This document shows, in pieces, positions 27,882-60,400 of a stretch of DNA of 64,000 bases. The stretch comes from a virus (taxonomy: Duplodnaviria > Caudoviricetes), in the IMG/VR virus record IMGVR_UViG_3300029967_000162, positions 32,001-96,000 of that record; one strand, given 5' to 3'. The notes beneath the pieces are model-generated. The model made no database searches, was not told where the DNA came from, and saw only the letters and a list, made by a program, of their open reading frames with translations. A program made the translations under genes and the position numbers. Each line of letters opens with the position of its first letter. The stretch's first letter is position 1.

Positions 27882-27930
27882 CTTAAGATTTGTACTTTTT
27901 ATTTTTATCAAAATGGTTTGTTTCTTCTTA

Positions 27931-28400
27931 AATTTATGCCAGGGGGCGGCAAATCTTCAAAATCCAACTTTTGATTAGTTAATCATCTTTGAACTTCTCC
28001 GCCCACTAGGGTAAACCTACACAATCCTAGGGCATTTCATGAAAGAACTTGAAGATTTAAGTTGAATTAGAAAAGCTAAGGACCTTTGAAATAGTTTTGT
28101 AACAAAATTGAAATATCTTTGAAACAAAACTTTAACAAAAATTTAACAAAATTTTGTAGACATTCCGCCCTGAAGTCGATACAATTCTTGTCTGGGACAA
28201 GGTCGGTGAAGGATCTAGTTAAAGTCTTAACTAGACTAGATCTAGTTAAGACTTTAACTTTAGTTAAAGAACTTTAACTAAAGTTAAAGACTTTAACTAA
28301 ACTAGACAGATCTAGTAGGCTTAGCAGAGAGAGTATGAGAGAGACTTCTTTCTGATGCTGAATCTCTACAGGAGACTGACAGGCCCTCCCGAAAAAATTC
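27931..28400 (-). repeat. Dispersed palindromic/iteron-like intergenic element, copy A
   Basis: Reverse complement of 59930-60400; ~120-bp core identical; four AGTTAA-n4-6-TTAACT palindromes with CTAGATCTAG spacers; TTTAACAAAA repeats. Confidence 0.92.
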
Positions 28401-40031: not shown

Positions 40032-41345
40032 TTGGAAAGACTTGCCAAAAATAAATCAATTGCTGACTCTTACAGGCAGACTATGCAGAAGAGGCAGGGG
40101 CAAGTCTGCAAAGTGTACACAGTCAAAGTCCAGAAGAACAGGCTCAACAAAGTCCAAGCAGAGACTTTGAAGATGCAATTTGTTGAGGCTAAGTGGCTCT
40201 ACAACTATATTCTCAACAAGTCAATGGAAGGTGATATTAACATCTTTAAAGCTGACTATAAAGACTTCAAGAAGATAACACATCTTGATAAAGACCACAA
40301 TGAAGTAGAGGTTGACATATCATTTCTTGATTGTCAAGGCATGCAGAGCTTGATAACTTCTATCCAGTCTTCTATCAAGACTTTGCACAAGCTGAAGGCA
40401 TCTGGAAGCAAAGTTGGCAAGTTGAAGTTCAAGACTGACTGGACATCATTGAACATCAAGCAGTTTGGTGAAGACAAGATTAGGTCAAAGAACAAAGTCA
40501 AAGTTCCTGGCATTCGCAAAGAGCTAAAAGTGAATGGTTTAGACCAGATTTTGAATTCAAGGTATGGAAAGCTTGACATAGCAAATGCAAAGCTTATCAA
40601 GAAGAATGATGACTACTATGTTGCTATCACCTGCTTCATCGACAAAGACGTGTATGAAAGACTAAATGACAAATCTAGAACACTTTATAAAGAAATAGTT
40701 GGCATAGACTTTGGTTGTCAGTCCTCATTGACCTTTTCTGATGGAAGGAAAGTCAACTTGTCTGTTGAAGAAACTGAGCACATAAAGAGACTGCAGAGGA
40801 AACTTTGTAGGCAGCAGAAAGGCTCAAGCAACAGACAAAGGACAATCATGAAGATCAGGAAAGAGTACGAGAAGATCGACAACAAGAAGAAAGACTTAGC
40901 CAACAAGACAGTGCATGGCATCTTTGAAGGATACGGCCAAGTGTGCATCCAAGATGAGCAGCTGAACAAATGGAAGAGCCAACATGGCAAGAAAGTCCAG
41001 CACTCTTGCCTGGGGCTTGTCAAGCAAAGGCTAATCAACAATGGTGCATTTGTCATTCATAAATATGTGCCTACTACAAAGATATGTCTTGAGTGCGGTC
41101 ATGTTGTTGAAGACATGAAGCTCTTTGATAGGACTTTTAAGTGTCCCGTCTGTGGAAGCACATTAGATAGAGATGTCCATGCAGCACAGAACATGGTTTG
41201 GTATCACCAACACAAAGAGACCATAGGTGTGGAGCGCACCAAATTCAAGCGACTGGACTTCAAGTCACAGATGGCTAATCTGTTTGGCCATGATGTGTAT
41301 GAAGGATTTAAGGTCGAAGATGCTCGGTCTTCAGCCGAGCATTAG
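40032..41345 (+). CDS. tnpB: RNA-guided endonuclease TnpB
   Basis: GIDFG, IQDE, PTTKICLECG...CPVCG..LDRDVHAAQN. Confidence 0.92.
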   Translation: MERLAKNKSIADSYRQTMQKRQGQVCKVYTVKVQKNRLNKVQAETLKMQFVEAKWLYNYILNKSMEGDINIFKADYKDFKKITHLDKDHNEVEVDISFLDCQGMQSLITSIQSSIKTLHKLKASGSKVGKLKFKTDWTSLNIKQFGEDKIRSKNKVKVPGIRKELKVNGLDQILNSRYGKLDIANAKLIKKNDDYYVAITCFIDKDVYERLNDKSRTLYKEIVGIDFGCQSSLTFSDGRKVNLSVEETEHIKRLQRKLCRQQKGSSNRQRTIMKIRKEYEKIDNKKKDLANKTVHGIFEGYGQVCIQDEQLNKWKSQHGKKVQHSCLGLVKQRLINNGAFVIHKYVPTTKICLECGHVVEDMKLFDRTFKCPVCGSTLDRDVHAAQNMVWYHQHKETIGVERTKFKRLDFKSQMANLFGHDVYEGFKVEDARSSAEH

Positions 41346-42467: not shown

Positions 42468-42589
42468 CTTCAAGTTGTCTTAGAAAAAACTACATGTGTT
42501 TGTATCATTGGATGCAAGGAATGTCTCACATTTTGAGAGGACAAAGCCACTATCCCACTTTAAAAACTTTGACAAAAGAATTTTTGACA

Positions 42590-44251
42590 ATGGCAAAGAA
42601 GACAGCAACTGGAGACCCTGGGCAGATGAGTTCTGTGTTTGATCTCATAAAGAGCTTTGATGACTCAGCAGAGATCATCGCAGACAGTGCATACTCTAAC
42701 ATCAAAGAGTGGATTCCATCAGGCAACTACATATTGAATGCATGCATGTCTGGTGACTTGTTCAAGGGACTTCCTTCCGGCAGGACAATATCTTTGATTG
42801 GCGAAGAAGGGACTGGCAAGTCATATTTGCAAGTATCATTTTGTCGTGAAGCACAGAAACTTGGATGGGTCCCCGTGATATTGGATAGTGAGGGTGCGAT
42901 TGACTCTACATTTGTTGAACGGCTTGGTGTAGATCCCAAGAACTGCATCATCAAGCAGGTGAACACAATCTTTGAGACAAACAACTTCATATCTAACTTG
43001 GCCAAGTCTCTGCAAGAGCAGCAAGACAAGTATGGTGAGCACCAGAAAGTGATACTTGTGCTTGACTCTCTTGGCAACTTGACTTCAAGCAAAGAGCGTG
43101 ATGACACAATGGCTGGTGAGCAGAAGCGAGACATGACGAAGGCACAAGAGATTCGTGCACTGTTCAGGGTAAACCAAGTAGCATTGTCTAAGCTGCAGAT
43201 CCCATGGATTGTAATTGGGCATGTTTATGCATGCCTATCTAAAGATGCTGAAGTGCTTATGGCTGACAACTCAACAAAGAACATCAATGAGGTATCTATT
43301 GGTGAGAAAGTCATGACTCTTGCTGGTCCTAGAAAAGTTGAGTCACTTCATGAATATGAAGTGAAGAATTGCATACATTTTGTGTTTGAAGATAGTACTT
43401 CTCTCACTTGCACACCAAACCATATGTTTGCCCAATCTGTAGAAGATGGTGGATATATATGGGTAGAAGCAGCAAATTTGATTGAATGCGACACAGTAGT
43501 GCTCAAAGATTCTCATGAGCTTAGAATCACATCAAAGACAATCATAGAAGAACAAACAAAAGTCTATGACTTGACTGTGAGTGGTGAGCACACATATTTC
43601 TTGAAGAATGGAATCATATCACACAACAGCAATGACATGTTCCATCCAGGCCCTCAGCAGTCAGGTGGAGGTGGCATCAAGTACAACTCTTCTATCACAT
43701 TGCTCCTCTCTACTAGGAAGCTTGAAGACAAAGAGAATGATGCAGCGGCTGGCAAGAACATAGGCAACACCCAGACTAAGAATGGCATACTTGTCAGTGT
43801 GACACCTAAGAAGTCTAGGTTCTGTGTGCCTAACAAAGTCTCATTCCAGATTCCATTCTTCAAGGCACCTAATCCATATGTTGGGCTCGAGCAATACTTG
43901 AACTGGGAGAATGCAGGTGTATGTCGTGGCAATGTCCTTGATGAGAAGGCATATGCCAAGCTGAATGCAGCTGAGCAGGCTAAGTGCCATGAGTTTGAGC
44001 ATGATGGGCAAAAGCTCTGGTGCCAGCCTAAGGACAATGCACGTGGCATGGCGGTGAAGCATCTTGGACGGCAAGTCTCATTCATTGAGTTCTTCTCAGA
44101 TGTCGTGTTCACAGATGACTACTTGCATGAGATCAATGAGAGAGTGATCAAGCCAATATTCCAGCTGCCTTCACGAGATGCATTTGATGACATCAAAGAT
44201 GTTGAGGAGACACTTGGGATCGACCAAGAAGATGAAGAGACAACAGAGTAG
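42590..44251 (+). CDS. uvsX: RecA/UvsX recombinase containing an intein
   Basis: GEEGTGKS Walker A, LDSEGA, LDSLGNL, DMTKAQ, SGGGGIKYNSS, KSRF. Confidence 0.93.
   Translation: MAKKTATGDPGQMSSVFDLIKSFDDSAEIIADSAYSNIKEWIPSGNYILNACMSGDLFKGLPSGRTISLIGEEGTGKSYLQVSFCREAQKLGWVPVILDSEGAIDSTFVERLGVDPKNCIIKQVNTIFETNNFISNLAKSLQEQQDKYGEHQKVILVLDSLGNLTSSKERDDTMAGEQKRDMTKAQEIRALFRVNQVALSKLQIPWIVIGHVYACLSKDAEVLMADNSTKNINEVSIGEKVMTLAGPRKVESLHEYEVKNCIHFVFEDSTSLTCTPNHMFAQSVEDGGYIWVEAANLIECDTVVLKDSHELRITSKTIIEEQTKVYDLTVSGEHTYFLKNGIISHNSNDMFHPGPQQSGGGGIKYNSSITLLLSTRKLEDKENDAAAGKNIGNTQTKNGILVSVTPKKSRFCVPNKVSFQIPFFKAPNPYVGLEQYLNWENAGVCRGNVLDEKAYAKLNAAEQAKCHEFEHDGQKLWCQPKDNARGMAVKHLGRQVSFIEFFSDVVFTDDYLHEINERVIKPIFQLPSRDAFDDIKDVEETLGIDQEDEETTE
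43232..43627 (+). mobile_element. Mini-intein (132 aa, no homing endonuclease)
   Basis: Block A CLSKDAEVLMAD, block B CTPNH, block F VYDLTV..EHTY, block G NGIISHN followed by Ser+1. Confidence 0.93.
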
Positions 44252-45476: not shown

Positions 45477-47522
45477 ATGCCATTCAATGAGAATGAGAAG
45501 AGATACAACAAGCTAGACAAGCTTGCGGAAGGTGAGAAGCTGCAGACTGTGTACTCAACTGAGAAAGTTGAGAAGATACTCAAAGACATGGGCAAAGGCT
45601 TGCAAGTTGACATGTCGCCTTTCTTCCATGGAGACACTAGATATAAAGATGCCGGATTGCTCTACAACTACACAGAGCATGAGATTGAAGAGCTGCAGAA
45701 GTGTGCTGATGACTGCTTGTACTATGTGAAGAACTATTGCAAGTTCTTGAATGACAAAGGCCGCACACTAGTCCAGCTGCGCGACTACCAAGAGCAATAC
45801 ATACAGATGCTTGGAGAGCAAGAGTATGATGAAGACATTGGAGAGTCGATACCTAAGAACAGGAGAATCATAACAATGATGGCTAGGCAATCATCCAAGA
45901 CCACATCCACAGCAGCTTACATGTCATGGTACATGACATTCCATACAGACAAGAACTTGGCCATTGTGGCGAACAAAGGCAAGACTTCACAGGAGATTGT
46001 CTCTAAAGTCAAGGAAGTATTTGAAGGTCTTCCATTCTTCATGAAGCCTGGCATCATCCGTGCACAGATGCAGTCTATCACACTTGAGAACGGATGCTAC
46101 TTGATGTGTGCGACTACTAACCCAACTTCCATCACTGGCCAGTCTAACAATGTGCTCTACATAGACGAGGCAGCCCACATACCCCAGAACATCATGGATG
46201 CATTCTGGAAGTCAGTGTATCCCACTCTGTCTTCATTCAAGAACCAGCAGCTCATCATATCTTCTACACCTAAAGGCAAGCAGAACTTGTTCTATCGCAT
46301 ATGAGATGGCTCTATGAAAGGAGAGAACAACTTCAAGAACTTCAGAGTGGACTGGTGGCAGGTGCCTGGACATGATGATGCTTGGGCAGCAGAGCAGATC
46401 AAAGACTTTGGTGCTGACAACTTTGCACAAGAGTTTGGGCTCAGGTTTGAGTCAGACTCATCAAAGCTCATACGAGGCGAAGACTTCAAGCTCATGGACA
46501 GGTGGAAGTCCAAGTACAAGGTTAGGTCATTCGATGGCGTTGACAAAAGGATCTCTGACAAGATCTTCTGAGACCCAAGATTCACAATAGACACAAACAA
46601 CTTGCAAGAGCTCCAGAGAAGGCACTTCTTGATAAGCATAGACACAGCAGAAGGCAAGCAAGCTGGTGTGAAAGGCAAGCAGGACTCTGACTACAACATT
46701 GGCAACATATTTGAGGTAGAGCTCATGTCGCCAGCTAGGGTGCGGAGGAACAAGAGAAGCACGATGAAGAAGCAAGTGGCATATGCGGACTGCATCAGGT
46801 ACAGGCAGGTTGGCATATACATTGACAACGACAGAGATGAGGAAGAGCTTGCTGAAGCGATGAAGGTTGTGACCTTCAATGTGCTGAAGTGTGGTGTTGG
46901 TGATGTGGATAATGTGAGGCTCCTCATAGAGATGAACTTCAATGGCAAGAACTTCGTGAACAAGTTCAAGGCACATGACAACTTCTATGACAGTGTAATA
47001 ATCAAGACATACCACAACAAGCCGGTGCCAGGGCAGCAGCACACAAGGCAGTTTGGCTATAAGACAGTAGGTGGCGAGAGAGGCAAGGGATACTGATGTG
47101 AGCTAGGTGCAAAGATGGTCGCAGATGGGCGAATCATCATAAGCCACTATGATGATGACTGGAACAAGTCATCTATTGGAGAGCTTGAGAACTTTGGCAA
47201 GAACAACAGAGGAGTGTATGAAGGCTGCTGCGTGCATGATGACATAGCGATGACTGTGCTCTCTGTGAGCCACACACTAGATGACTCTCTTGAAGACTAT
47301 ACAGCTTGGCTTGAAGAGTATGTAGACAGGCTGCCGAAGGATGACAAGCATGCTGAAGATGTGAAGAAGCTGATGAAGATATACTCAGAGAGTGAGAGTG
47401 ACTGGTCTGACAGCGACTTCAATGCAATGTATGGAATTGACAATGGAGCACACAACAACATGCCATACCAGAGCATGGTGCAGAATGTGCAGTGGGCTAT
47501 TGCACAGAAGTGAAGGCACTAA
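45477..47522 (+). CDS. terL: Terminase large subunit (T4 gp17-like), 681 aa
   Basis: LRDYQ, ARQSSKTT, YIDEAAHI, ISSTPKG, FAQEF, IDTAEG, DY, HDD motifs; fragments joined by TGAs at 46302, 46569, 47094 and 47511. Confidence 0.94.
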
Positions 47523-48389: not shown

Positions 48390-49601
48390 TTAATTTGTGA
48401 GGGCAATCCTCACTGGCCTAGCCACAAGGCCTCTACTCCCTAGCAATGCATCAGGAGATGCTTTTCAAAACTTTCTTGCAATGTTGAGCGAACCATTCAC
48501 ATCAGCATTCAAGAGTCCAGTTGGGTCTTTGAACAATCCACGCTTGATCCTCTTCCCAGTTGGCTTGAAGAGTTCATCATCAACTTTCCAAGTTGGCAGA
48601 TAGTCATTGTTGAAGAAACTGCACTTTGATGTATAGCTTTCTTCTTGCAACACCACATTAATTCCTAACAACTTAGCCTTATATTCAATCATCTTCACAA
48701 ACTGTCAGAATGGTATCTGCACAAAATTCTGGTTTGACTTCTTTGACATGCTTGTGTCTTGTTTCCATCCTTTGTTGTAACCAACAATGATTGTTGTCAA
48801 GGAATGTTCAACGGCTTGATTCACAATCACTCTAGAAGCCTTGTGGAGATAGTCTTTGACTTTGTTGTTTCTTTTCAGGCTCAATGCTTTGACTTTGTTG
48901 CTTGATTTTTGCTTGTTTTGCTCTAACTTTGACTTATAATGTGCTAACTGTTTGTTATAGAATTGGTTGATTGACTTCAAAGGTTTCCCATCAATAATGA
49001 ATGCATTCACTCTATTAGAAGTACATGTTGCTAAGTTGTTTACCCCTAAGTCTATAGAAAGCCAATTCCCGTTCTGTTCTTTGAGTTCTTGTTCTTCTAC
49101 TTCATAGACAACTTCTATGATAAGATAATCACCTTTTGGTATTACTCTAACTTGCTTTAAATCATTAGTATGCTTTGAATTAAATTCTAAATTTGTCTTT
49201 GGTAATCTGATAATACCAATTTTCAAAAAGTTCTTGCTTAAAGTCATTGAATTATAAGTCAAGACAAATCTTCCTTTCTCTTTATCTAAATAACTAGGTA
49301 TCCTAACTTTTTTTCCTGATTTCTTCTTGAGCGACTGAAAAAATGACTTATAATTGTAATAGACTAACTTAAGTACTTCTTGTGATGTATTTGAAGGCAA
49401 TGCAAAGTAGTTCTCATCATGTCTGTCATGCAAGAGTCTGTTGAGGCCATAGTAGTCAAGAAAAGTCTTGTCTTTGAAGAACTGCTGCCTGACTTCATAG
49501 AGAGCAGCATTATAGAGGTTCTTAGACAAGAAGCACAAATGATCAAGCTCTTTGTAGAGCTTGTCTGCCTTCTTGACTATATGTTGCTCAACTAATTTCA
49601 T
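48390..49601 (-). CDS. tnpB: RNA-guided endonuclease TnpB, 403 aa
   Basis: SKNLYN, IDLGVNN, LHKAS, EESYTSKCS, RIKRGLF, NADVNGSLNI; two internal TGAs (48705, 48465). Confidence 0.9.
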
Positions 49602-49623: not shown

Positions 49624-50226
49624 TTATTTATCTTCAAGCTTCAAATCTTTTTCAATGAGCTGCAACTTCTCTTTTCTTCTTGATGAGTACATCTTCATAG
49701 AGAAACAATGAATCAAAGAGATGATTTCTTCAAAGATTTCTTTCTCAATCTCTCTAGGATTGTCTATCTCATTGAGCACTACTATGTCTACTCCATACTT
49801 TTCAAACAAAGACTTGAAAGTCTGAAATGAGATTCTTGAAAGTCTGTCTTTGTAAGTTATGAAGATCTTGTTGATCTTGTATGATGTGACATCATCTAGA
49901 AGCTCTTGGAACCCGTCTCTATCAAGTGACATCCCTGAAGCAATGTCTTTGTAAATCTTTGAGACCTTTACACCATTCTTGAAGCAGAACTGCTCTAATG
50001 TAGAGATTTGATTCTCAAGGTCTTTCTTCTGGCAGGTTGAAGAAACTCTAGCATAGATTACATTGATTTGCTCTACATTCTTGTTAAGTAGTTTATAGAC
50101 ATCATTCTTGTTGTAGTCATATTGGCCGTTTGGTAAGGTCTTTGTTGATATTCAGCCTCTAGAGACATAATGACAAAGAGTAGGTCTTGTAATTTTTAAC
50201 AAAGACAATACTTCTTTAGCTTTCAT
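49624..50226 (-). CDS. tnpA: IS607 serine transposase
   Basis: MKAKEV HTH, IYARVSS, DIASG, YKDRLSR; one TGA in the HTH region. Confidence 0.9.
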
Positions 50227-50348: not shown

Positions 50349-50432
50349 GCCAATATGGGACAGTGGTCAACTCCACCTGCCTTGTAAGCAGGCTCTGTAT
50401 AAGATGCGCAAGTTCGAATCTTGCTATTGGCT
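50349..50432 (+). tRNA. tRNA-Thr(UGU) with long variable region
   Basis: Acceptor GCCAATA/TATTGGC; anticodon arm CCTGC-CTTGTAA-GCAGG; T arm GCAAG-TTCGAAT-CTTGC; 15-nt variable region. Confidence 0.8.
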
Positions 50433-50452
50433 CAAGATAAATTATCTTGACA

Positions 50453-50525
50453 TGTGGGATAGAGCAGTTGGCAGCTCATCAGGCTCATAACCTGAAGGTC
50501 GCAGGTTCAAGTCCTGCTCCCGCAA
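50453..50525 (+). tRNA. tRNA-Met(CAU), initiator-like
   Basis: TCAGG-CTCATAA-CCTGA anticodon arm; GCAGG-TTCAAGT-CCTGC T arm; resembles bacterial tRNA-fMet. Confidence 0.92.
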
Positions 50526-50529
50526 CCGA

Positions 50530-50832
50530 AGTGCATGATGGGCACCGGCGCCCTACAGATGCACAACTCTCAAGGCATAGCCGGCGATGGGGCTACATGC
50601 ATCCATTGCAACCTGTGGAGAGTGGCGCAAGATACAAGGGAAACTTGCAACAGAAGAGTGCCAGAATTGGCATTAGCAGATGCCTAGGATCATGTGGTGA
50701 CACATGATGAAAAGCTTCAAATCTCTTCTAAATGGTGTACCTGTGATGGAGTTCACCTCATCAGAGATGATCACATGCACAGCTTGCTAAATACATGATA
50801 GGTTCGCTGCCTTTGTACACCACTGTTTGCAT
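50530..50832 (+). ncRNA. Candidate structured non-coding RNA of unknown family
   Basis: Non-coding, GC-richer than flanks, many nested stems, located between tRNAs and a terminator. Confidence 0.55.
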
Positions 50833-50870: not shown

Positions 50871-50924
50871 GGGGCACCATGCAACATAAATAAAAAGACG
50901 AATAGAAGACTTGGAGATGGAGAC

Positions 50925-51896
50925 ATGAGGAGAACTATTTGGCATATCTTTATAGTTGCTGCACTTGCACTTCTAGCAAGCTGCCAACGTAGGCCTATTG
51001 AGCAGACAATGTCACTAGTGCATATCACAGTTGTAGAGCAAGACTCTATCATGAATGTGACATATGGCTTGCCAACTAAAGCTGTAGATCCACCTGAGAT
51101 CACAGCAGATGGCTTCCTCCTCTACTGCTACAAGGATGATGAGAATGGCAGGCAGACCGGGCCTTATGTGATGGCAGTGCGAGGCACGGACATGAGCTAT
51201 GATGGATGGCTCAGCCTTGAGAGTGGTGAGTGGACTGTCATGGCAGCCACATTTGACGGCACTGACATACAGACATCAATCACAGACATATTTGAAGATG
51301 GCTATGCATGAGTGTCACACCAGGTGAACGGCACTCTGCAACAGCCAGACCACTTCTTTGTTGGATCAGAGAGGCAGATAGAAATTGTGCCACAAGTTGC
51401 AGCTGACTTTGACACTGTGCAAGTGGCAATCAATGCTGAGACCATCACGAAGACTTGGTATGTGCAAGTTGGCGTGGCAGAAGAGAGTGATGAGATGCCA
51501 AGTGCACTCTCTGCTTGTGTGACAGGCCTTGCAGACAATGTGAAGCTCATCACAAAGAGCATAGATGGGCAAGATCAGTCACAGCTGAAGCTTGAGCTTG
51601 TGGATGATCCATTCAGCTCAGGCAAGAAAGTGTATGCTGGGGTGTTCTCAACATTCGGGTTCAACAGCAAAGCACCAGAGATTGTGCTATCGCCTCAAAC
51701 AAAGTCAATCACAAAGACATTGAGCTTGAGCGATGCTCTTGTGACTGAAGATGCGACTGAGAGGCAATGGATCATCTTGGATGATGCAGTGGGGCCAGAC
51801 GACTTCAAGAGAGACACCACCCAGGCTAGCTCAGGCAGCATGTGGCAGCCATATGTCGAAGACTGGGAACATGAGACAATAAAATTTTACATATAA
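50925..51896 (+). CDS. DUF5119/FimB-Mfa2-like lipoprotein (type V pilus anchor-like), 323 aa
   Basis: Lipobox LLASC followed by QRRP; C-terminal PYVEDWE..I; two ORFs joined by TGA51309. Confidence 0.7.
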
Positions 51897-51901
51897 TAAA
51901 C

Positions 51902-52912
51902 ATGAAAATGAAGTTCATTCTAGGTGCTGCTGTTGCAGCATTCATGGTGGCAGTTGGATGCACTAAAGAGAATGTCCAGCTTGCTCCTGCACAGGAGATA
52001 ACAATGTCTCCTTACTACACTACAAGTGTTGCTACAAAGGCAGATGATAACGAGCATTCGTTTGCAACTACTGAGACCTTTGTCACTAAAGTGTACTATG
52101 ATGACAGCAAAGATGAAAATGGTGTCTATGTGCCAGAGTCTGTAGTGAAGTACACAGATCAATGGAGAGCTTATAATAATGAAGATGTTATGATGCACTA
52201 CTATTGGCCAGTTGATGGAAAGAAGCTGACTTTCTACTCTTACTACCCAGCAAGCTTGAAGTCTCAAGAGAATGCTCCTAAAGCTTGGATTACTAGCGTT
52301 GGTGTCAATGCAGAGTTCACTTCTCGTCCAGAAGTAGACTTCATGGTTGCTGACACGCAATGTGGCCAGACTGCTAATAGTTCTAATGACAACTACACAG
52401 GTGTTCCAACGATCTTCCGGCATGCTCTTGCTAAGATTGAGACTGTGCATTTGAAGTTGCAGGGTGCGCCATATAATAGTTTGTCATACAAAGTCATGTA
52501 TGTGAAGTTGACAGGCTTGAAGAATGGCACTTATACACAATCTGGTGAATCACATTGGAAATTGTCTGAAAATGATGAATATTCTGAAAATGATGGATAT
52601 AGTGAATTTCTTTATAATAATAAAGATGGCTTAGAGATCAACAAAAAGGATGGCGGTAGCTTCAATGTTAATAAGTTCTTCATACCTGGAAACAACTTCA
52701 ACATCACAGTTGGCTTCGAAGTTACTGGCTCTAACAACATAGTGCAAAAATTTGAGAAGACAGCAAGTGTTGAAAACCTTAGTATGCAAGAGAACTACAA
52801 CTACACCTTGAACATCACTAGAGGAAGTGATAACGACAAGCCGGTGAATGAGATCCTCTGGGCACCTTCTGTGAAAGATTGGATTGATGATACAATCAGT
52901 GTCACACTTTAG
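51902..52912 (+). CDS. Fimbrillin-like (type V pilin) lipoprotein
   Basis: Lipobox AVGC, TKA processing motif, YYWP..LTFYSYYP, FRHALAKI, C-terminal strand SVKDW. Confidence 0.82.
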   Translation: MKMKFILGAAVAAFMVAVGCTKENVQLAPAQEITMSPYYTTSVATKADDNEHSFATTETFVTKVYYDDSKDENGVYVPESVVKYTDQWRAYNNEDVMMHYYWPVDGKKLTFYSYYPASLKSQENAPKAWITSVGVNAEFTSRPEVDFMVADTQCGQTANSSNDNYTGVPTIFRHALAKIETVHLKLQGAPYNSLSYKVMYVKLTGLKNGTYTQSGESHWKLSENDEYSENDGYSEFLYNNKDGLEINKKDGGSFNVNKFFIPGNNFNITVGFEVTGSNNIVQKFEKTASVENLSMQENYNYTLNITRGSDNDKPVNEILWAPSVKDWIDDTISVTL

Positions 52913-52916
52913 ATTC

Positions 52917-54416
52917 ATGTCTCTCAAGTGGGTCGCCGCACTAGCAGTGACCCTTGTTGTCTTTGGGTGCTCTAAAGATGATGGCACTGCATATGATGCT
53001 CCCACACAACCATCTACATTGCCATTGCTCAGCTCATGGCAGGCCTCAACAAAAGCTGACAACGCACAAGATGAGCAAGCTTCTGCAGACACAGTTGCCC
53101 TTGATCACTCAAAGGCCTTCTACATGACCGCTCTGACAACTGATGATAGGAAACTCTGGTCATCATCAGATGCACAAGTCAGCTACGCAGAAGGCATTGG
53201 GTGGCATTCAGGATGATATTGGCCAGCAGAGCTAGACAGAGAGCTTGAGATTTGGACATATCCAACAAAGATGTGGACAGCTATAGACACAACTGCAAAG
53301 ACAGTCTCTGTCGCTCTAGATGGCAAAGATGACTTGATCTTCACAGCCACCCCATCTTATAGCAAAGGTCCAAACCCAGTGAATGTGAAGTTCATCCACT
53401 CTCTTGCAGGTGTGACTGTAAGCAGCAACATCAAGAACCCAAACACAAAGCAGAAGATGGCATGGGCAGAGCAGATCACTGCAAGCTACATGAACACTTC
53501 TGGCATCTGGGACTTCACCAACCAAAGATGGACTTCTCTGGATGGAAAGCAAGCAGAGGATGCAAAAGTAGGCTCTGTCTTCTATGTCACTCCTGGGCAG
53601 ACTATTAGCTTGCACCTTGAGAAGCTGCATGTCATCAACAACAATGATGAAGATGCTGCACAGATCCTTGACTATGACCTCAAGACACCTGTAGAAGTCA
53701 AAGAAGGTATGATGCATGAAGTTGTCATCAACATGAGTGAAGCTGAAGAGTGGGTTGACTTAGGCCTGCCTTCTGGCACGCTCTGGGGTACAAAGAACAT
53801 CGGTGCATGCAAGCCAGAGATGTATGGCAACTTCTACAGGTGGGCAAACTTGAAACAGCGAATGAAAGGAGACTCAAACACTTCAGACCCAGAAGCAAGC
53901 CAACGGCAGAGCAATGGAGAGATGCAAGACACCTATGACATTGCATACCAGATTCTAAAAGGTGAAGGAGAGACCCCAACTTACACTCAAGTTGAAGAGC
54001 TCAAGAAGTGGTGCAAGTGGGAGTGGATGGAAGAAGGCAACACTGAGTTCAGCGGAGTGCCAGGATTCAAGATCTATGCTTCTGGCTACTATAACACAGA
54101 CAGCAAGAGCACTTTCATCTTCATTCCTGCAAATGGCTACTATGATGACAATGGCTGGATGATAGACTACAACACTTATCAATACAAAGGCAGCACTTCA
54201 GAGCAAGGAGTGAAGTCTACAAGGAAGGGATCATACTGGACTTCTACCTACAACAATGGCACTCCACACACTCTCAACTTTGGTGCAGGATGGGAGACAA
54301 TGCCAGACAATGAATACCAGACTGGGCAGACCCCACATGCTCTTGGCATCAGGCCGGTGAAAGTACAGAAGATCTCTGGCCGTAACCCTAACCCAACCAG
54401 GAGCAACCAATGGTAG
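52917..54416 (+). CDS. Fimbrillin-like lipoprotein with C-terminal adhesin domain (tip pilin-like), 499 aa
   Basis: Lipobox VFGC, TKA, *YWP, FIHSLA; C-terminal WVDLGLPSGTLWGTKNIGA...YWTS...IRPV domain; joined via TGA53214. Confidence 0.78.
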
Positions 54417-54599
54417 CTCTCTAACTGCTTAGTATCCACCAGGACATCTTTTCCTGGCATAAACATGTCCCAACAAGAAAAGGTTTCTCATGGAAAATTG
54501 TCCTAAGAAACCTTTTTAATTGTCTCATATTCATTTGCTTAAACCGATTAAAATCAGAGTTGCCTCTATATAAATCATGTAAACAAACACAGAGACAAC

Positions 54600-54995
54600 A
54601 TGAGACACACATTCACTTCTATCATCGCTGCGATCGCAATTGCATTCTCTACCATCAGCTGCTCTGCTGAGAGATATGACATCGAACCAATGCCTGCAGA
54701 AGAAAGCCCTGCTTATGTGATGTACAAAGCAGTGTCTGCAGACTCTACCGACATCATGGAGATCTCAACTCTCACTTCTGTAGGTGTAGCAGACTTCAAG
54801 AGCACTGCCGAGTTTGAAGCAATCATAGGACCAGTGGATGCAAACACATTTGAGCCTTCAATCGAAGCAGTCTCTCAGAAAGATGCGGAGATCAAGATCT
54901 CTATCTACATCAGTGAGGACCTTGAGAGCTGGAAGCATGTCGGTGGCACGACAGGAGAAGCATATGCTGAAGTAGTGACAAAGATCTCTGAATAG
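54600..54995 (+). CDS. Small lipoprotein
   Basis: Signal peptide ending TISC. Confidence 0.65.
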   Translation: MRHTFTSIIAAIAIAFSTISCSAERYDIEPMPAEESPAYVMYKAVSADSTDIMEISTLTSVGVADFKSTAEFEAIIGPVDANTFEPSIEAVSQKDAEIKISIYISEDLESWKHVGGTTGEAYAEVVTKISE

Positions 54996-55183
54996 AAGGA
55001 AGACAATCTCATGTTGCCTAGATATGATTGATGTTAGGCATTGAGGTGTCGTATAAAGCTCAATACACAAGATTTTGGTTCTTGCAATCAGGGTTGGATT
55101 CCCTGCACCTCAACCAAGCATTGATCAAAGTTTTTTCCTATGCACTTGCTACATTAGCAGGTGCATTTTTAGCAAAGAAAGCC

Positions 55184-55414
55184 ATGTGCTTCAAGAAGAA
55201 AGACAAGACATATGTTGAAGTTGTAGGAGAGCATTGGCTAGATGAGACAAAGATGCTCTCATACAAAGAGTTCATTGCATGCAAGCACCCTTCTGAGATA
55301 AAGCTTTGCAAGCTCTATGAAAGTTTTGACGAGCTTGAGAAGACAAAGCAAGACCACAAGCATAGAATCTTTGATTTGATTCAGAAGTTCATTGATAAAG
55401 ATTACGGGATGTAG
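55184..55414 (+). CDS. Small hypothetical protein
   Basis: ORF whose stop codon overlaps the 5' end of tRNA-Pro. Confidence 0.45.
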   Translation: MCFKKKDKTYVEVVGEHWLDETKMLSYKEFIACKHPSEIKLCKLYESFDELEKTKQDHKHRIFDLIQKFIDKDYGM

Positions 55415-55555
55415 TTCAGTTGGCCAGAACGCTGGTTTTGGGATACAGAATGATTTACTGTGACAAATCAACATTGTAGTCAAGACGTGAGGTTGAAGAT
55501 CGAATCTTCCTACAATGTCAACCAGAGGTCGCGCGTTCGAGTCGCGCCATCCCGA
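55405..55555 (+). tRNA. tRNA-Pro(UGG) interrupted by a 77-nt insertion after position 37
   Basis: CGGGATG/CATCCCG acceptor; CTGGT-TTTGGG[77 nt]A-ACCAG anticodon arm; GCGCG-TTCGAGT-CGCGC T arm. Confidence 0.88.
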
Positions 55556-55590: not shown

Positions 55591-55845
55591 ATGCCAATTG
55601 GTCTCACACTCTTGATTGTGTTCTTGCTTGGTGGCTTGCTAGGCTACTCACTTCCATTCATGAAGCTCTACATTGACTTGAAGAATGACCCTGAGCTTCG
55701 GCAGAGGACTTATGATGAGATGGCAGATTGGTTCATCAAGCAGAATGACTGGGAATCTCTCAGAGAGCTGAACTGGTCAGAAGTATACAGAGGATGCAAG
55801 AAGAGGATGACTGACATGACTGGCAACATCGATGATGAGAGCTAA
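55591..55845 (+). CDS. Small membrane protein
   Basis: N-terminal hydrophobic helix. Confidence 0.65.
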   Translation: MPIGLTLLIVFLLGGLLGYSLPFMKLYIDLKNDPELRQRTYDEMADWFIKQNDWESLRELNWSEVYRGCKKRMTDMTGNIDDES

Positions 55846-55866: not shown

Positions 55867-55901
55867 AAAAAATCTCAGAGCTTTCACTCTGAGATTTTTT
55901 T
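55867..55901. terminator. Bidirectional terminator
   Basis: AAAAAATCTCAGAG-ctttca-CTCTGAGATTTTTT between convergent genes. Confidence 0.8.
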
Positions 55902-59929: not shown

Positions 59930-60400
59930 AAATTTTCGGGAGGGCCTGTCAGTCTCTAGAAGAAAAGAAGAGTCTTCCAGTCAGTCTCTCTCATACTCTC
60001 TCTGCTAAGCCTACTAGATCTGTCTAGTTTAGTTAAAGTTTTAACTAGATCTAGTTAAAACTTTAGCTAAAGTTAAAGTCTTAACTAGATCTAGTCTAGT
60101 TAAGACTTTAACTAGATCCTTCACCGACCTTGTCCCAGACAAGAATTGTATCGACTTCAGGGCGGAATGTCTACAAAATTTTGTTAAAGTTTTGTTAAAG
60201 TTTTGTTAAATTTTTGTTTCAATTTTGTTACAAAATTATTTCAAAGATATTCAGCACTTCTAATCCAACTTAAACCTTCAAGCTCTTTCATGAAATGCCC
60301 TAGGAATGCGACATTTAGTCCAAGTGGGCGGCTAAGCACAAGGATGATTAACTAATCAAAAGTTTGATTTTGATGGTTTGCCGCTTCCTGGCACAAACTT
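59930..60400 (+). repeat. Dispersed palindromic/iteron-like intergenic element, copy B
   Basis: Inverted copy of 27931-28400. Confidence 0.92.

Follow-up and report, generated by a model that had tools for sequence, protein, structure and literature searches.

What would a bacteriophage do with a set of genes that resemble those for a bacterial surface pilus? The question is raised by a stretch of DNA from the Caudoviricetes record IMGVR_UViG_3300029967_000162 of IMG/VR (134,147 bp, linear by its classification and 24% complete by the CheckV estimate), whose bases 32001 to 96000 form the 64,000-nt window analyzed here; all positions below are coordinates of this window. Between 50925 and 54995, four co-directional lipoprotein open reading frames (ORFs) are found on the plus strand under genetic code table 4, namely Lp1 (50925..51896, 323 aa), Lp2 (51902..52912, 336 aa), Lp3 (52917..54416, 499 aa), and Lp4 (54600..54995, 131 aa), with 5 nt between Lp1 and Lp2, 4 nt between Lp2 and Lp3, and 183 nt between Lp3 and Lp4. 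All four have a hydrophobic leader that ends in a lipobox Cys (LLAS-C20 in Lp1, AVG-C20 in Lp2, VFG-C18 in Lp3, and TIS-C21 in Lp4; signal peptides and lipoboxes were read by eye). An earlier note, made from the letters alone, had described three contiguous lipoprotein genes of anchor, pilin, and tip type plus a fourth small one, and this layout is borne out. In our proposal, the locus is a minimal type V pilus-like operon, intact and resident in the phage, whose products would be assembled by host machinery on the infected cell and whose completion is tied to the reading of TGA as Trp, a proposal to which we give an even chance. The reading as a series of an anchor-class, a shaft-class, and a tip-like subunit has support in the case of Lp1 and Lp2; in the case of Lp3, it is plausible.

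Lp1 is the anchor-class member of the series. No direct Pfam, NCBIfam, or PHROG match was obtained for it, and the DUF5119 model of Pfam (PF17145) itself misses Lp1. Apart from the two halves into which table 11 splits Lp1, however, an exhaustive HMMER search returned 62 distant homologs of equal length with 22 to 30% identity. Many of these homologs align across the TGA site of Lp1. DUF5119 is carried by all 50 homologs in an alignment termed A1, and a hidden Markov model (HMM) built from 50 DUF5119 relatives without Lp1 finds Lp1 with an E value of 1.3e-44 over residues 1 to 319; the A1 profile, in turn, matches the structure 5cag at 1.4e-28. By this transitive homology, Lp1 is assigned to DUF5119 as a divergent member, which keeps 23 of the 41 conserved family columns. 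Its C terminus has the motif P309-x-V-x-D-W314...I-x-F-x-I, of which P-x-V-x-D-W is common to Lp2.

The AlphaFold (AF2) model of Lp1 has a mean predicted local distance difference test score (pLDDT) of 86.2 and a disordered tail from residue 300. In VIA comparisons, it matches 5cag with a Z score of 16.4 (root mean square deviation [rmsd] of 3.7 Å, 234 residues aligned), followed by 3gf8 (Z 14.6), 3pay (Z 14.0), and 4qdg (Z 13.6), and it matches the Porphyromonas gingivalis anchor Mfa2 (5nfi) with a Z score of 13.6 (rmsd 4.5 Å, 237 residues aligned). Shaft and tip pilins score from 9 to 11.8 (FimA, 10.5; Mfa3, 10.4; Mfa4, 10.0; Mfa1, 9.1), so that the predicted fold is nearest to Mfa2-type anchors. 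Anchors are defined by the absence of the N-terminal cleavage site and by the retained lipid (PMC8512630). In line with this definition, T[KR][AGS] occurs within the first 80 residues in only 3 of the 50 DUF5119 homologs.

Lp2 is the shaft-class fimbrillin. It matches Pfam Mfa_like_1 (PF13149) with 54.3 bits against a gathering cut-off of 27 (55.1 bits in a six-frame search) and has 35 homologs with 24 to 30% identity. In the 36-sequence family, Lp2 keeps all 15 invariant columns (Cys20, T45-K46, F60, W88, W102, F111, G167-V-P-T170, F172, P262, I318, and W327); of the 44 columns with a conservation of 80% or more, it keeps 36. Its features are a maturation-site motif (T45-K46/A47), a groove strand (G167-V-P-T-I-F-R-H174), and a C-terminal donor region (residues 317 to 336). 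In P. gingivalis, FimA is cut at R46 and Mfa1 at R49 to open the acceptor groove (PMC8512630), and the T-K site of Lp2 stands at the corresponding position. In the AF2 model of Lp2 (pLDDT 72.6), confidence is low at the two ends, as a pro-strand and a donor strand would lead one to expect. VIA places it closest to the fimbrial protein BVU_2522 (4qb7; Z 19.0, rmsd 3.0 Å, 267 residues aligned), followed by other Bacteroides fimbrial subunits (Z 13.6 to 14.4), FimA prepilins (10.4 to 10.9), and anchors (7.7 to 9.3). The ranking of predicted folds, with pilins before anchors, is thus opposite to that of Lp1. Both models have the FimA-superfamily fold of two β-sandwich domains, and the pilin fold that had been presumed for the locus is seen in predicted models of both proteins, Lp1 against Mfa2 (Z 13.6) and Lp2 against 4qb7 (Z 19.0).

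A homodimer of Lp2 was predicted from two copies of the mature chain (residues 47 to 336) with no alignment. The ipSAE score was 0.53 (runs of 0.56, 0.48, and 0.53), compared to 0.00 for the best of three controls; the partner pLDDT did not fall below 76, and ≥70% of the contacts agreed between the runs. When the tool was calibrated, 21 of 30 proteins with structures of same-chain pairs reached the mark, compared to 0 of 23 with single-chain structures. The predicted interface brings residues 317 to 336 of one copy against residues 165 to 174 (the GVPTIFRH strand), 99 to 113, and 286 to 308 of the other. The modeled dimer is head to tail via the C-terminal strand, which is the geometry of type V donor-strand exchange.

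The call of Lp3 as the tip-like subunit is drawn from a sub-threshold Pfam match, motifs in common with Lp2, and the order of its domains. The N-terminal part (52917..53741, plus strand; aa 1 to 275) has a lipobox, the sequence C-S-K-D-D, T45-K46-A47, W-Y-W102-P103, and FIHSLAG. The S-K-D-D after the lipid Cys presumably resembles the acidic surface-export signal (LES) of Bacteroidota lipoproteins. T45-K46-A47 and Y/W-W102-P103 stand at the same positions in Lp2 and Lp3, and FRHALAK of Lp2 corresponds to FIHSLAG of Lp3; the TKA, YWP, and FxHxL signatures that had been read in both pilin-like genes are indeed there (FRHAL in Lp2, FIHSL in Lp3). In the six-frame search of the genome with Mfa_like_1, the second match lies at 53196-53741 (Lp3 residues 94 to 275) with 21.2 bits, below the cut-off of 27, and an E value of 1.4e-5 per genome. 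It covers model positions 45 to 233 of 246 and ends just short of the donor-strand region, where the lectin-type domain starts. The N-terminal part is probably a divergent fimbrillin-like domain by its sequence, and we do not file it as a member of Mfa_like_1.

The C-terminal part of Lp3 (53742..54416, plus strand; aa ~276 to 499) is an Lcl_C/DUF1566/FISUMP-like, lectin-type domain that begins WVDLGLPSGTLW. It has 645 homologs (best E value, 3.6e-32), most of them with PF07603 (Lcl_C/DUF1566); the PF07603-bearing homologs range from 1e-32 to 1e-14, and PF09603 (Fib_succ_major) is weak. Multiple copies of the domain and combinations with Big_2 or dockerin modules are frequent among these homologs. 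Lp3 itself has no direct Pfam match for Lcl_C/DUF1566, and for its table-11 fragment no sequence similarity to any PDB chain was detected. It is plausible that Lp3 is a tip-like subunit with a lectin-type domain in the place of the donor strand. The tip protein BACOVA_04982 of Bacteroides ovatus fimbriae (4eps, 497 residues) is similar to Lp3 in size and layout: residues ~32 to 283 of 4eps align with the models of Lp1 and Lp2, and a C-terminal domain of ~210 residues remains. The assignment of the three genes to the anchor, pilin, and tip families, and the HMM searches by which it was to be checked, hold for Lp2 with PF13149 and for Lp1 with the DUF5119 relatives; the DUF5119 model of Pfam fails on Lp1, and Lp3 stays below the cut-off. 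Lp4 has no Pfam, NCBIfam, or PHROG match; its neighbors in the Atlas are small lipoproteins from Bacteroidota (feature score 0.93, TM ~0.65), no more than a lead.

One tie of these genes to the phage is the genetic code. The long-ORF sequence content of the window is about twice as high when TGA is taken as a sense codon, and the recoded translation gives PHROG profile matches to a large terminase (TerL), a UvsX-like recombinase, a head maturation protease, and a 1,314-aa tail sheath. TerL (45477-47522, assigned by PHROG) has 4 in-frame TGA codons and is 43 to 44% identical to the TerL of the 540-550-kb Prevotella Lak megaphages; no other GenBank phage reaches 60% identity. In the alignment with the Lak terminases, three of the TGA codons fall opposite W, W, and F, and therefore the reading of TGA as Trp is justified. 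The contig may belong to a TGA-recoded relative of Lak-sized phages. The nearest TerL comes from TAG-recoded Lak megaphages, whereas the phage of this contig recodes TGA. A TGA-suppressor tRNA was not found in the 134-kb contig, whose five tRNAs are for Thr, Met, Gln, Ala, and Leu.

Lp1 and Lp3 have one in-frame TGA each, as had been noticed before. In Lp1, the codon (51309..51311, plus strand) is read as Trp at aa 129, where the family has an aromatic column (Tyr in 31/50 and Phe in 3/50); in Lp3, it lies at 53214..53216 (plus strand; aa 100) in the sequence SG[W]YWP. Lp2 and Lp4 have none, and the claim that the operon depends on the recoded code is thus correct for two of the genes and fails for the other two. 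Under the phage code, the frames of Lp1 to Lp4 are all open, and frameshifts are absent. In the TGA-recoded gut phages (Jade, Sapphire, and some Agate) and the TAG-recoded Lak phages, likewise, recoded stops sit in late genes and are absent from replication genes, and the hosts are predicted to be Bacteroidota with the standard code (10.1101/2021.08.26.457843). The text of that paper, in contrast to the locus described here, mentions no lipoprotein or pilus genes.

A second tie is the motif ATAAATA, which occurs at 50886..50892 (plus strand), 32 nt before the ATG of Lp1. It is found 21 times in the window, compared to 4.3 expected (the largest count in a shuffle was 10, and 0 of 100 shuffles reached 21), and the majority of its copies genome-wide lie 16 to 35 nt 5′ of an ORF start on the same strand. 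The motif precedes the sheath gene, the protease gene, the gene before the terminase, the gene for an 853-aa protein, and Lp1. The earlier note was right that it stands before both the operon and virion genes, but it likewise precedes both genes of an IS607 element. The flank of the copy before Lp1, caacATAAATAaaaag, is found again before a 343-aa ORF elsewhere in the genome. We take ATAAATA to resemble the T4 late promoter, TATAAATA, and late expression of the locus from this element may reasonably be supposed from its distribution.

Residence in the phage, which had also been claimed, is borne out by the flanking terminase, IS607, phage tRNA, and structural genes and by a second contig with the same 21 kb. 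This contig (JGI metagenome 3300017492; 101,651 bp) agrees with the first at every position of a 21,011-bp stretch (100% identity) that spans the recombinase, the terminase, IS607, the locus, and structural genes, which argues against a one-off misassembly, though both contigs may draw on the same reads. The relative synonymous codon usage (RSCU) of the locus correlates with that of 16 trusted phage genes (r 0.91), as opposed to four cellular fimbrial loci (r 0.22), and TGA makes up 2 of the 36 Trp codons of the locus and 21 of the 173 in the trusted genes. The closest cellular homolog of Lp2 has 30% identity. In a quick tree (one best match of 300 to 420 aa per cellular locus, with 3 of 72 loci left out), the terminal branch of Lp2 is 1.71 substitutions/site against a median of 0.34, which is five-fold. 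Lp2 stands beside another long branch, from a horse-gut Bacteroidaceae metagenome-assembled genome (MAG); this grouping may be long-branch attraction, and therefore we name no donor. The data point to a locus that has long been resident in the phage rather than recently captured, and the assertion that it was assimilated, and is no fresh piece of host DNA, fits with both the 30% identity and the five-fold branch.

Relatives of the locus in other phages were looked for in several ways. The tblastn search with Lp2 against 50,697 GenBank phages gave nothing, and scans of IMG/VR with short exact patterns (from Lp2, the A2 alignment, and the 853-aa protein) gave no relative; the latter are weak negatives, from which records of or very near this genome were excluded. 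In the A1 alignment, no stretch was conserved enough to serve for such a scan, and how sensitive the methods are sets a limit to all of these negatives. The complete genomes of Lak-A1, Lak-B5, and Lak-C1 have no match to PF13149, PF17145, A1, or A2, where PF17145 misses Lp1 itself and the A1 and A2 searches had no positive-control genome, so that their empty result shows nothing. The 134-kb contig has no paralog or repeat of the locus and no template or variable repeat of a diversity-generating retroelement (DGR). The phage has no match to the maturation protease family Peptidase_C25, a result that is uninformative because the control genomes are equally without a match. Full-text literature searches gave no paper on phage-encoded fimbrillins or on a phage pilus subunit set, and the Lak host-range paper does not mention fimbriae, pilins, lipoproteins, or adhesins.

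In cells, DUF5119 and Mfa_like_1 genes recur in an operon that consists of a DUF3575/OmpA-like outer-membrane gene, DUF5119, several Mfa_like_1 genes, and genes for a ~530-aa protein and for proteins of 830 to 1,100 aa. In a scan of one genome per species, 72 such loci were compared, mostly from Bacteroidales MAGs (Alistipes, Cryptobacteroides, Muribaculaceae, and rumen lineages), a few of them with bin labels of other phyla. DUF5119 directly precedes the fimbrillin run in 51 of the 72 loci, and a DUF3575-like gene is also present in 39, where it heads the operon. The phage locus has the same adjacency of DUF5119 and fimbrillin on the same strand and in the same order, with only 5 nt between Lp1 and Lp2, and also the lipobox, T-K-A, the GVPTxFRH strand, and the C-terminal P-x-V-x-D-W. 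It differs in that the DUF3575/OmpA-like gene and the distal proteins of ~530 and 830-1100 aa are missing, that there is one fimbrillin, that an Lcl_C-type domain is added (present in 0 of the 72 loci), that identity does not exceed 30%, and that two of the phage genes need TGA to be read as Trp. Among 77 cellular loci, Lp3 and Lp4 have no significant homolog, save for a weak fimbrillin paralog for Lp3 (E value, 0.0015). We propose that the locus descends from the Bacteroidales operon class with DUF3575, DUF5119, and n Mfa_like_1 genes, of which it would have kept Lp1, Lp2, and Lp3 together with Lp4.

The assembly rules of type V pili used here are taken from PMC8512630. With the P. gingivalis systems Mfa1-5 and FimA-E, the phage locus shares lipoprotein precursors, the FimA-superfamily fold (Z 13.6 for Lp1 and Mfa2; Z 10.4 to 10.9 for Lp2 and FimA), a basic residue near position 46, at the place of the FimA R46 and Mfa1 R49 cuts, a predicted C-terminal strand in the groove of the neighbor, and putative counterparts of anchor, shaft, and tip. 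It differs from them in being phage-borne, in its gene order (the anchor comes first in the phage and the shaft first in fim and mfa), in a Lys instead of an Arg at the site, in having one lectin-type tip-like subunit instead of a three-protein tip complex or the type IX secretion system (T9SS)-dependent Mfa5, and in a sequence identity of 7 to 12% in structural alignments.

If the genes function as a set, the fibre could arise as follows. Transcription would start from the ATAAATA element that is common to virion genes. Full-length Lp1 and Lp3 would appear only after the switch of the code to TGA as Trp, where the frame is plain and the timing is presumed. The host would export and lipidate the proteins and sort them to the outer membrane, as suggested by their lipoboxes, and a host Lys/Arg-specific protease would cut Lp2 and Lp3 after K46, thereby removing the N-terminal strand and opening the groove; we infer this cleavage because the invariant T-K site is located as are FimA R46 and Mfa1 R49. 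As in the predicted dimer, residues 317 to 336 of Lp2 would then fill the groove of the preceding subunit along G167-H174, resulting in a head-to-tail fibre. Lp3, which has no donor strand, would stand at the distal end and display its Lcl_C-like binding domain. Lp1, without a conserved cleavage site and with a shaft-like C-terminal motif, would, judging from fold and motif, cap the base, where its lipid would hold the fibre. The infected cell would come to bear a short adhesive fibre. A benefit could lie in the tethering of this cell to mucus, particles, or hosts not yet infected, in the course of a long infection of the megaphage type. We would go further only tentatively: that a virulent, megaphage-related phage builds an adhesive pilus gated by the code switch at its anchor and its tip, and that the virocell sticks to a chosen glycan, such as one on mucus, particles, or uninfected hosts, and so steers the release of progeny by means of a multi-subunit surface organelle encoded by the phage, is a reading we hold to be doubtful. 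The kind of organelle is known; what is new is that a recoded, megaphage-related phage carries it, with three genes.

Several observations weigh against a phage-made pilus. The prediction of the Lp2 dimer may reflect memory of the solved FimA polymer 6kmf, and what it shows is likeness, not binding. For the N-terminal part of Lp3, the score is under the Mfa_like_1 cut-off of Pfam, and hmmscan gave no match at an E value of ≤0.1. An hhalign comparison of Lp3 residues 19 to 275 with the Lp2 family is not significant (17.0 against 14.0 ± 2.6 for shuffles, 21 of 150 of which scored as well); with the signal peptide included, the probability was 35%, and a broader HMM from 363 operon paralogs gave an E value of 4. 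Lp3 also has replacements at several positions that are invariant in the groove strand of the Lp2 family (G167, P169, T170, and R173). Lp1, furthermore, has a nonconserved T-K-A at aa 51 to 53 (51075-51083), in the loop where shaft pilins are cut, and this is the same tripeptide as in the maturation sites of Lp2 and Lp3. If cut there, Lp1 would not serve as an anchor; the tripeptide may be fortuitous, or processing in this phage may extend to the "anchor." The phage locus has one fimbrillin, compared to a median of four paralogs per cellular locus, and a DUF3575 gene (PF12099) is absent, with no match at an E value of ≤10 in the 134-kb contig, which is an estimated 24% of the genome. The locus is known from one phage genotype only. 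Expression, export, cleavage, and the filament are what we infer, and an adhesive fibre made shortly before lysis brings no obvious pay-off.

Part of this evidence could also be explained by surface lipoproteins that act on the host envelope. Type V pili of the host could be capped or retargeted, with Lp1 in the role of terminator and Lp3 in that of a foreign tip, or the proteins could mask a receptor, with superinfection exclusion or altered surface behavior of the infected cell as the result. Phage outer-membrane lipoproteins that block receptors, such as T5 Llp and Cor, are of a known kind and count in favor of such a role. So do the single shaft gene and the missing DUF3575, in which the locus is unlike the cellular operons, and the T-K-A that is identical to that of the cellular family, by which host machinery or subunits could interact with the phage proteins; the anchors of P. 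gingivalis are elongation terminators (PMC8512630). However, Lp1 and Lp2 are only 25 to 30% identical to any cellular homolog, which speaks against a precise fit in host pili, Lp2 alone is predicted to self-associate head to tail, and a set of anchor, shaft, and tip exceeds the needs of exclusion. We consider action on the envelope, or on the pili or receptors of the host, the main rival, at odds well below even. It appears improbable to us that the phage carries the locus as passenger DNA, in which case a piece of a host fimbrial operon would have come to lie in a variable region next to IS607 and tRNA genes and would now be neutral or decaying. Its place in an accessory island with IS607 immediately upstream and tRNAs on both sides would fit such an origin, as would the shortening of the cellular operon to one shaft gene without DUF3575, the absence from Lak-A1, Lak-B5, and Lak-C1, the long branch of Lp2 (1.71 against a median of 0.34), and the retention of only 23 of 41 conserved columns in Lp1. 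Decay, on the other hand, is hard to reconcile with four frames that are open under the phage code without a frameshift, 15 of 15 invariant residues kept in Lp2, a fully phage-like codon usage, tight packing (gaps of 4 to 5 nt) behind a phage promoter-like motif, and TGA codons at aromatic and not at random positions.

Two further explanations place the genes elsewhere. In Bacuni phages of Bacteroides uniformis, DGR-diversified proteins have been modeled on the tip protein BACOVA_04982 (PMC8143477), and by analogy the products of the locus could be virion parts, i.e., fimbrillin- or lectin-fold adhesins on the tail or head; the position of the locus between packaging and structural genes and the shared upstream motif are in line with this. 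The Bacuni targets, however, are taken as virion receptor-binding proteins and not as exported lipoproteins. All four proteins of the present locus have lipoprotein signal peptides, which direct them out of the cytoplasm where virions assemble, none has a PHROG match, and the 134 kb of the contig have neither a DGR template or variable repeat nor a paralog; a virion role is therefore very unlikely in our judgment. The least credible explanation is an assembly chimera or contamination, in which host DNA was misjoined into a phage contig. Both contigs may stem from the same sample, which leaves a little room for it, but an in-frame TGA would truncate Lp1 and Lp3 in a host with the standard code, GC content and codon usage fit the phage, the adjoining IS607 genes also have in-frame TGA codons, the island includes tRNAs and promoter motifs of the phage type, and two contigs that differ in length have the same junctions.

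Phages are known for single surface-modifying "moron" genes, and a coherent set of pilus subunits has not been reported in the literature searched. If the set works, large gut phages can re-equip the surfaces of Bacteroidales with adhesins of their own, and a natural minimal type V pilus of three genes without DUF3575 would help to define what assembly needs outside P. gingivalis. It would also point to a Lys-specific maturation protease, as implied by the invariant T-K site, and provide a non-virion example of genes whose completion hangs on the code switch of a phage. Even an inert set would document that genes of a host surface organelle moved into a recoded phage and have long resided there.

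The locus is part of an accessory island between the packaging genes and the gene for the 853-aa protein on the opposite strand. Upstream, the island contains the IS607 genes, both on the minus strand: tnpB (48390-49601, 403 aa, 2 in-frame TGA codons; NCBIfam guided_TnpB, 9.9e-59) and tnpA (49624-50226, 200 aa, 1 in-frame TGA; NCBIfam transpos_IS607, 1.2e-52), each with an ATAAATA 19 to 23 nt before it. The IS607 genes depend on the phage code, and therefore the sequence suggests that the element is maintained inside this phage lineage. A second TnpB-like gene (40032-41345, plus strand) has no TGA. The IS607 genes are followed on the plus strand by tRNA-Thr (UGU) (50349-50433; 85 nt, unusually long for a Thr tRNA) and tRNA-Met (50453-50527), both found by ARAGORN and Rfam. 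Between tRNA-Met and the promoter-like motif of the locus lies a GC-rich noncoding spacer (50528-50730, plus strand) with a folding energy of −72.7 kcal/mol (z −3.27; 0 of 200 shuffles as good) and no Rfam match, which may be a structured RNA.

On the 3′ side of Lp4, the plus strand has tRNA-Gln (55042-55116) and a tRNA with a long insert of ~77 nt (55405-55555), which the Rfam tRNA model covers end to end over 151 nt with 53.4 bits and for which ARAGORN makes no call. The last ORF of the same-strand unit encodes an 84-aa membrane protein with one N-terminal transmembrane helix (55591-55845, plus strand). It is followed by a bidirectional terminator-like hairpin (55867-55900; 14 bp with T-runs on both sides) that is common to the convergent gene for the 853-aa protein.

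Two observations concern other parts of the window. The UvsX/RecA-like gene (42494-44251, plus strand) encodes 585 aa, of which the PHROG recombinase profiles span residues 34 to 250 only, and the precomputed JGI matches for it include weak or faint ones to Hint/intein families; it may be an intein-containing recombinase. An inverted repeat of ~470 bp with 87% identity is present at 27930-28395 and 59933-60400.

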